Assembly: GCF_057098645.1 (NCBI RefSeq)
Contig: NZ_CM169472.1
Length of the DNA: 64,000 nucleotides
Reading direction: 5' to 3' (one strand)
The position numbers and the translations under genes are program-made. Below, piece after piece: positions 41,190 to 41,800 of the stretch (the first letter of the stretch is position 1; each line of letters starts with the position of its first letter). The notes beneath the pieces are model-generated. The model searched no databases. It had not been told where the DNA came from and saw only the letters and a program-made list of their open reading frames with translations.

Positions 41190-41276
41190 TGGTGCGAGGG
41201 GGGGGACTTGAACCCCCACGTCCGTAAGGACACTAACACCTGAAGCTAGCGCGTCTACCAATTCCGCCACCTTCGC
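41190..41276 (-). tRNA. leuV: tRNA-Leu (anticodon CAG), encoded CCA
   Basis: 87-nt unit tggtgcgaggggggggacttgaacccccacgtccgtaaggacactaacacctgaagctagcgcgtctaccaattccgccaccttcgc is the reverse complement of tRNA-Leu(CAG) with long variable arm. Confidence 0.9.
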
Positions 41277-41310
41277 ACAGTCATCTTACTTTTTTTGATA
41301 TCGCCTCGTT

Positions 41311-41397
41311 TGGTGCGAGGGGGGGGACTTGAACCCCCACGTCCGTAAGAACACTAACACCTGAAGCTAGCGCGTCTACCAATTCCGCCACCTTCGC
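41311..41397 (-). tRNA. leuP: tRNA-Leu (anticodon CAG), variant copy with one substitution in the variable arm
   Basis: Second 87-nt copy; differs from the other two at one position (aagaacact vs aaggacact on the plus strand). Confidence 0.9.
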
Positions 41398-41425
41398 CCA
41401 GTGCGAGCAATATCAACGTGGTTTT

Positions 41426-41512
41426 TGGTGCGAGGGGGGGGACTTGAACCCCCACGTCCGTAAGGACACTAACACCTGAAGCTAGCGCGTCTACCAATTC
41501 CGCCACCTTCGC
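41426..41512 (-). tRNA. leuQ: tRNA-Leu (anticodon CAG)
   Basis: Third 87-nt copy, identical to the first. Confidence 0.9.
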
Positions 41513-41639
41513 ATACCATCAATTCTTAAAAAGAATTGCTACCACGGAGGCGCATTCTAGTGGTTTTCAGCTTTTCGTCAATAGTTAATTATCGACAGAG
41601 GTGTAATTGCTGGAAAAATATCCATCAGGAGACTAACGT

Positions 41640-41800
<161 letters not shown>

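Follow-up and report, generated by a model that had tools for sequence, protein, structure and literature searches.

Why does the middle one of three tandem tRNA genes differ from both of its neighbours by a single base, and does this base carry any function? Analysis of the window (the whole stretch of DNA that was analysed, 64 kb in length) with ARAGORN identified exactly three tRNA genes, all of which encode tRNA-Leu(CAG), are 87 nt long and are located on the minus strand. Each of them scores 48.5 bits against the Rfam tRNA model, for which the gathering score is 29. The genes were assigned on the basis of ARAGORN, Rfam and their trailer sequences, and the distinguishing base was located by alignment of the copies:

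41426-41512, minus strand: leuQ, promoter-proximal gene, C form, variable stem GUCC/GGAC
41311-41397, minus strand: leuP, middle gene, U form, variable stem GUUC/GGAC
41190-41276, minus strand: leuV, promoter-distal gene, C form
41350, minus strand (plus-strand A): variant base, gene nt 48, U in leuP

In the three-copy alignment, 86 of 87 columns are invariant, and gene position 48 is occupied by C, T and C. On the plus strand, leuP reads aagaacact where the outer copies read aaggacact, with G at both paralogous sites (41229 and 41465, i.e., gene nt 48 = C). The claim of an earlier note on this DNA, that the middle one of three tandem 87-nt genes carries one substitution, was borne out, and re-reading did not show identical copies. 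Gene position 48 is a linear count; the U that Sprinzl numbering designates as 48 lies at gene position 59.

A region of 411 nt around the genes shares 100% identity with E. coli K-12 MG1655, BL21 and many other complete genomes, and the comparison with the K-12 leu tRNA operon, proposed in the earlier note as a check, ended in complete identity over these 411 nt. The annotated gene order in K-12 is yjjQ-bglJ-fhuF-yjjZ, three tRNA-Leu genes and rsmC-holD-rimI-yjjG-prfC, and the locus, located between rsmC and yjjZ, represents the leuQ-leuP-leuV operon of E. coli. The middle gene and E. coli K-12 leuP have the same sequence, the same neighbours (fhuF, yjjZ, rsmC and holD) and the same distinguishing base, and no difference between them is detectable. 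A consensus scan revealed a sigma-70-like promoter approximately 40 nt upstream of leuQ:

41554-41581, minus strand: sigma-70-like promoter, TTGACG, 16 nt, TAGAAT (10/12 matches to the consensus)

Its position suggests that it is the operon promoter, and we take it to be the well-studied 'leuV' promoter. The bases that follow the encoded CCA (AAAACC for leuQ, AACGAG for leuP and AUUAUC for leuV) agree with the text of PMC2190699, and the order of transcription is therefore leuQ, leuP, leuV. The leuQ and leuP trailers are swapped between Table 1 and the running text of that paper; window positions 41417-41425 (AAAACC after the promoter-proximal gene) and 41302-41310 (AACGAG after the middle gene) agree with the running text. 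The operon was reported to yield one transcript with a Rho-dependent end, which is cut into pre-tRNAs by RNase P alone (PMC2190699).

The products have the long variable arm (>10 nt) of class II tRNA-Leu. The variable region comprises 15 nt (gene nt 45-59), in which nt 46-49 and 54-57 form a 4-bp stem closed by the loop UUAC. The stem pairs of the C form are G46-C57, U47-A56, C48-G55 and C49-G54, while leuP has U48·G55, with the partner G55 at window position 41343. The hairpin was placed by evaluation of the cloverleaf:

41341-41352, minus strand: leuP variable-arm hairpin, gene nt 46-57 (G-U-U-C, loop UUAC, G-G-A-C)

The pairing of nt 48 with G55 in the cloverleaf confirms that, as had been proposed, a C-G pair of the variable-arm stem is converted to U-G in leuP. 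Unconstrained minimum-energy folds of the isolated tRNAs were not cloverleaves for either the C or the U form, and their z-scores were unremarkable; since free-energy folding of bare tRNAs is uninformative, the cloverleaf was evaluated explicitly. The hairpin energy was -2.3 kcal/mol for the U form vs. -5.2 kcal/mol for the C form, and the corresponding values for the whole cloverleaf were -27.1 and -30.0 kcal/mol, which gives a cost of 2.9 kcal/mol for the change. With the other arms held fixed, all four stem pairs of the U form reach a probability of 0.96-0.98.

The leucine identity elements, i.e., A73 and the D-loop G18G19 with its T-loop tertiary partners (PMC9976931), do not differ among leuQ, leuP and leuV. 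An A directly precedes the encoded CCA in all three copies (discriminator A73), and the D loop (GGAAUUGGUAGA) and the T loop (UUCAAGU) are the same in each. The anticodon CAG (gene position 35-37) is also shared by all copies, so the designation "isoacceptor variant", considered in the earlier note, does not apply; the right term is isodecoder (same anticodon, different body).

The one-base difference of leuP is already known and published. It is stated for the LeuP variable arm in PMC12472396, and a tRNA-seq study (bioRxiv 10.1101/2020.02.21.958157) keeps the sequence class "(leuP)" apart from "(leuQ leuT leuV)". The processing paper of 2007 (Mohanty and Kushner) describes leucine tRNA genes with "identical nucleotide sequences" (PMC2190699), so the difference has sometimes been overlooked.

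The occurrence of both forms in E. coli was determined with 55-mers centred on nt 48, in which each 28-nt megablast seed includes the variant base. Of the 5426 complete E. coli genomes, 4852 (89%) contain the U form, with a median of one and no more than four places per genome. The C form was found in 5425 of the 5426 genomes, in a median of three places, which presumably represent leuQ, leuV and leuT; the copy counts imply that leuT of E. coli is of the C form. The remaining 574 complete genomes (approximately 11%), O157:H7 among them, have no U form. Three O157:H7-type genomes were inspected (L002, L131 and L132), and each carries a single C-form tRNA-Leu gene between yjjZ and rsmC, so the U form can be lost in nature.

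These counts bear on the trivial reading, namely that the base is a sequencing or assembly error or marks a decaying pseudo-tRNA copy. Only a single base is concerned, and some assemblies do contain evident homopolymer errors in these genes (L003, O157 Z1826), yet the recurrence of the same base in thousands of independent assemblies refutes an error. Decay is contradicted by the intact cloverleaf, A73, encoded CCA and anticodon of leuP, and tRNA-seq work treats the gene as expressed. We give this reading practically no credence. The candidate classification of leuP as a tRNA pseudogene was likewise rejected: all stems pair, the Rfam score equals that of the paralogs, and the gene is conserved across genera.

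Minor irregularities of the assemblies were noted separately. In L003 (E. coli ETEC1702), all three genes contain 7 C's instead of the usual 8-C run, which results in 86-nt copies, and a tRNA copy of L131 (O157:H7 Z1826) is annotated as 86 nt long. Both are most likely homopolymer assembly errors. In E. coli deficient in mismatch repair, a hot spot for indels has been reported at the same C run (PMC8510543).

Beyond E. coli, an exact-pattern scan for the U form (partner G or A) was performed on species-representative genomes and gave at least 120 matches; the scan was ascertained on the U form, so cross-genus frequencies are biased. Among the matches listed, the U form occurs in Escherichia, Salmonella, Citrobacter, Klebsiella, Raoultella, Kosakonia, Enterobacter, Lelliottia, Pseudocitrobacter, Phytobacter, Trabulsiella, Pluralibacter, Pantoea, Proteus, Morganella, Xenorhabdus, Photorhabdus and others. 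Two contexts were distinguished among these matches: (i) argX-hisR-leuT-proM, and (ii) a tandem Leu(CAG) array, which adjoins rsmC and holD and, in Enterobacteriaceae, also yjjZ and fhuF. On account of this synteny, the arrays were considered orthologous to leuQPV. Among the matches listed there are 47 tandem triples, 33 of which, from 14 genus labels, have the order C-U-C; the U occupies the middle copy in 39 triples, the third in 8 and the first in 1, and it stands at the same operon position in 16 of 22 genus labels. A middle-position U was found in E. albertii, Salmonella, Citrobacter, Klebsiella, Raoultella, Kosakonia, Phytobacter and others. The matches listed for Xenorhabdus and Photorhabdus are U-C pairs, and those for Proteus and Morganella are C-U pairs. 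The leuT gene is of the U form in many non-Escherichia Enterobacterales (L006, L007, L013, L015, L023, L031, L123 and approximately 30 more loci) and of the C form in E. coli; the U:C gene ratio therefore differs between genera.

A second sample of loci was fetched via RsmC homologues, independently of the variant. In this sample, C-U-C was found in two assemblies of S. enterica subsp. enterica and in S. bongori, one assembly of S. enterica (L126) and one of S. bongori (L127) have a single C-form copy, a Klebsiella pneumoniae-type operon is C-C-C, and a Kluyvera operon contains two copies with variable-arm changes other than that of leuP. Judged from the compared operons, the C-U-C order was inherited from an ancestor shared by much of the Enterobacteriaceae.

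The same data bear on neutral drift, the other explanation offered in the earlier note. A single pair-keeping transition resembles a trivial polymorphism and could be taken for a recent neutral mutation in the window's strain or in E. coli only, but its frequency in complete E. coli genomes and the same middle position in orthologous operons of other genera refute this, and we regard such an origin as very improbable. Drift in the sense of a recent chance change is consequently not sustained, while its neutral part, i.e., little or no functional effect, stays plausible: pairing is retained, LeuRS does not need the arm, and the U form has been lost repeatedly.

The rate of change at nt 48 was compared with that at synonymous sites of the neighbouring rsmC gene. 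At rsmC four-fold sites, 41-54% differ between E. coli and other enterobacterial genera, and approximately 70% for most Morganellaceae. From the transition component of this divergence, a neutral C/U site is expected to differ from the E. coli state in approximately 24% of comparisons. For nt 48 of the three copies, 17 of 141 comparisons (12%) differ from E. coli, in a sample ascertained on the U form, with non-independent species and some linked changes (C-C-U patterns; one Lelliottia/Enterobacter clade, X-X-U). Turnover at nt 48 thus seems slower than neutral, at about half the expectation, which is not decisive; given the ascertainment of the sample and the non-independence of the species, we do not claim selection.

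The tolerance of the variable arm was assessed in 247 87-nt Leu(CAG) genes from 126 loci, which comprise 24 distinct sequences. The variation clusters in three places, namely the variable arm (nt 47-57), acceptor pairs 5-7 with 77-79 and the T-arm (61, 68 and 75), and nt 11 and 24 are changed in single sequences only. All 11 variable-arm variants among these genes retain 4/4 stem pairs, two of them with U-A at the 48:55 pair (Tenebrionibacter and Xenorhabdus indica), and an alignment of 32 operons shows the variable stem of the middle copy to be fully paired (100% of cells). The C-G to U·G to U-A series corresponds to the known compensatory pathway, in which U·G is the classical viable intermediate, with the difference that here the intermediate persists in most lineages without being resolved to U-A.

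In the acceptor stem of all three tRNAs, pair 5:79 (linear numbering) is an A·C mismatch, which is non-canonical according to Rfam; among related Leu(CAG) genes of other genera, no sites vary more than these two:

41393 and 41319, minus strand: acceptor mismatch 5:79 in leuP (Rfam)

The long variable arm is not required for leucylation by E. coli LeuRS, and variants without the arm remain active (PMC9976931). A ΔleuVPQ strain, in which the C-form leuT alone is left, was built and assayed in E. coli, and loss of abundant tRNAs was detrimental where nutrients permit rapid growth (PMC9981150). In view of this strain and of the natural losses, the U form is dispensable, and we infer that it is probably functionally equivalent to the C form.

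We consider it likely that the U form of leuP is an ancient, pair-preserving and nearly neutral paralog difference, and its product an isodecoder. The gene leuP is one of four E. coli tRNALeu1 (anticodon CAG) genes, and leuQ, leuP and leuV are co-transcribed from one promoter, with RNase P separating the three tRNAs. What sets leuP apart from leuQ, leuV and leuT is one C-to-U transition on the 5' side of the variable stem (4 bp), by which a U·G wobble takes the place of the C-G pair; the hairpin is predicted to be weaker but still to form. As the known leucine identity elements (A73, the D/T-loop tertiary pairs and the anticodon) are untouched and the hairpin forms, the leuP product should be processed and charged normally and decode as tRNALeu(CAG). 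The rsmC-linked operon in an ancestor shared by Escherichia, Salmonella, Citrobacter, Klebsiella, Raoultella and Kosakonia already had the C-U-C order, and in the Morganellaceae the C and U forms both occur. Both states probably persist because the site would toggle between two pair-preserving states only, within the least constrained arm. Like other bacterial and eukaryotic isodecoders, the two forms share the anticodon (CAG) and the identity elements and have one body difference; many eukaryotic isodecoders differ at several positions, some of them with functional differences, whereas leuP is distinguished by one pair-preserving transition.

The spacers that flank leuP in the operon have a feature of their own:

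41398-41425, minus strand: leuQ-leuP spacer, 28 nt, equal to the leuP 5' leader
41277-41310, minus strand: leuP-leuV spacer, 34 nt, equal to the leuP 3' trailer

They are complementary over approximately 13 bp (UUGAUAUUGCUCG with CGAGGCGAUAUCAA, one bulged G), and the resulting leader-trailer helix brackets leuP alone, not leuQ or leuV. In the minimum-energy fold of spacer-leuP-spacer, the helix is stacked below the acceptor stem. Identity of the leuQ-leuP spacer across enterobacterial genera is 76-100%, with Tenebrionibacter as an outlier (58%). In the 32 enterobacterial operons, 91% of the helix cells are paired; covariation in the helix across these operons is not significant vs. shuffles, and the changes are nearly all one-sided. 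The predicted helix may be relevant to the RNase P-only processing of the operon. The leuQ-leuP spacer was detected in 4737 E. coli genomes, which is fewer than the number of U-form carriers, because single SNPs abolish all 28-nt seeds of the 56-nt query. For the leuP-leuV spacer, the corresponding search of E. coli genomes gave 0 matches, its A/T run probably being masked by the BLAST low-complexity filter.

The helix, conserved around leuP alone, would fit a different explanation, in which selection retains the U-form tRNA as an isodecoder with a specialised function and cells gain from at least one copy; its weaker arm could alter RNase P processing, stability or turnover, fragments, or sensitivity or resistance to tRNA-binding factors. 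The recurrence of U at the same position in 39 of 47 triples and 16 of 22 genus labels (p about 2e-4 vs. random, shared ancestry being ignored) points in the same direction, although common descent predicts positional conservation without selection. Retention of the middle-copy U across genera with 41-54% four-fold divergence could reflect weak selection, and the halved turnover at nt 48 and the U-form leuT of many genera are consistent with it. Against it, the U form is missing from approximately 11% of E. coli genomes, from single-copy Salmonella and from the C-C-C Klebsiella-type operon, neighbouring arm positions vary as freely in other lineages with the pairing kept, LeuRS ignores the variable arm (PMC9976931), and a strain with the whole operon deleted was built and assayed (PMC9981150). 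We regard this explanation as unlikely. It is quite unlikely, moreover, that selection maintains U·G tRNALeu(CAG) as a second isodecoder in the Enterobacterales, with at least one copy (leuP and/or leuT) kept. If it did, the weak arm, possibly together with the leader-trailer helix, would lead to distinct maturation, stability, fragments or partners, and the C-U-C order would reflect function, not descent alone.

The operon in the window is the standard leuQ-leuP-leuV operon of E. coli; its one-base heterogeneity is genuine and, with the nearly neutral paralog difference as the preferred reading, has little biological weight. It is of modest interest that this heterogeneity is ancient and fixed in position in many genera, despite the chance of homogenisation of the 87-nt repeats. 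In read-mapping, tRNA-seq and probe design, leuP has to be handled as a distinct sequence, and nt 48 offers a handy natural marker with which gene conversion and copy-number collapse of the tandem array can be followed. If allele swaps had an effect on fitness, leuP would be an isodecoder with a function of its own, a rarity in bacteria.

Collapse of the array to one C-form copy between rsmC and yjjZ was observed independently in E. coli O157:H7, S. enterica and S. bongori, and is consistent with recombination between the 87-nt repeats. The mismatch of the middle copy was also considered as a recombination guard of the array, and this was rejected as the main explanation: the outer copies are 100% identical over 87 nt, and single-copy collapses actually occur in three species.

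The region between the operon promoter and rsmC contains REP-type elements, one of which was recognised by Rfam as naRNA4:

41652-41734, plus strand: naRNA4 match, REP/BIME-type (RF02564, 73 bits)
near 41757-41800: similar REP/BIME-type palindromic repeat

The gap between the tRNA genes and rsmC is 267 nt in K-12 vs. 189 nt in O157:H7-type loci, and on account of this shorter gap at least part of the REP-bearing stretch is probably absent from the latter.
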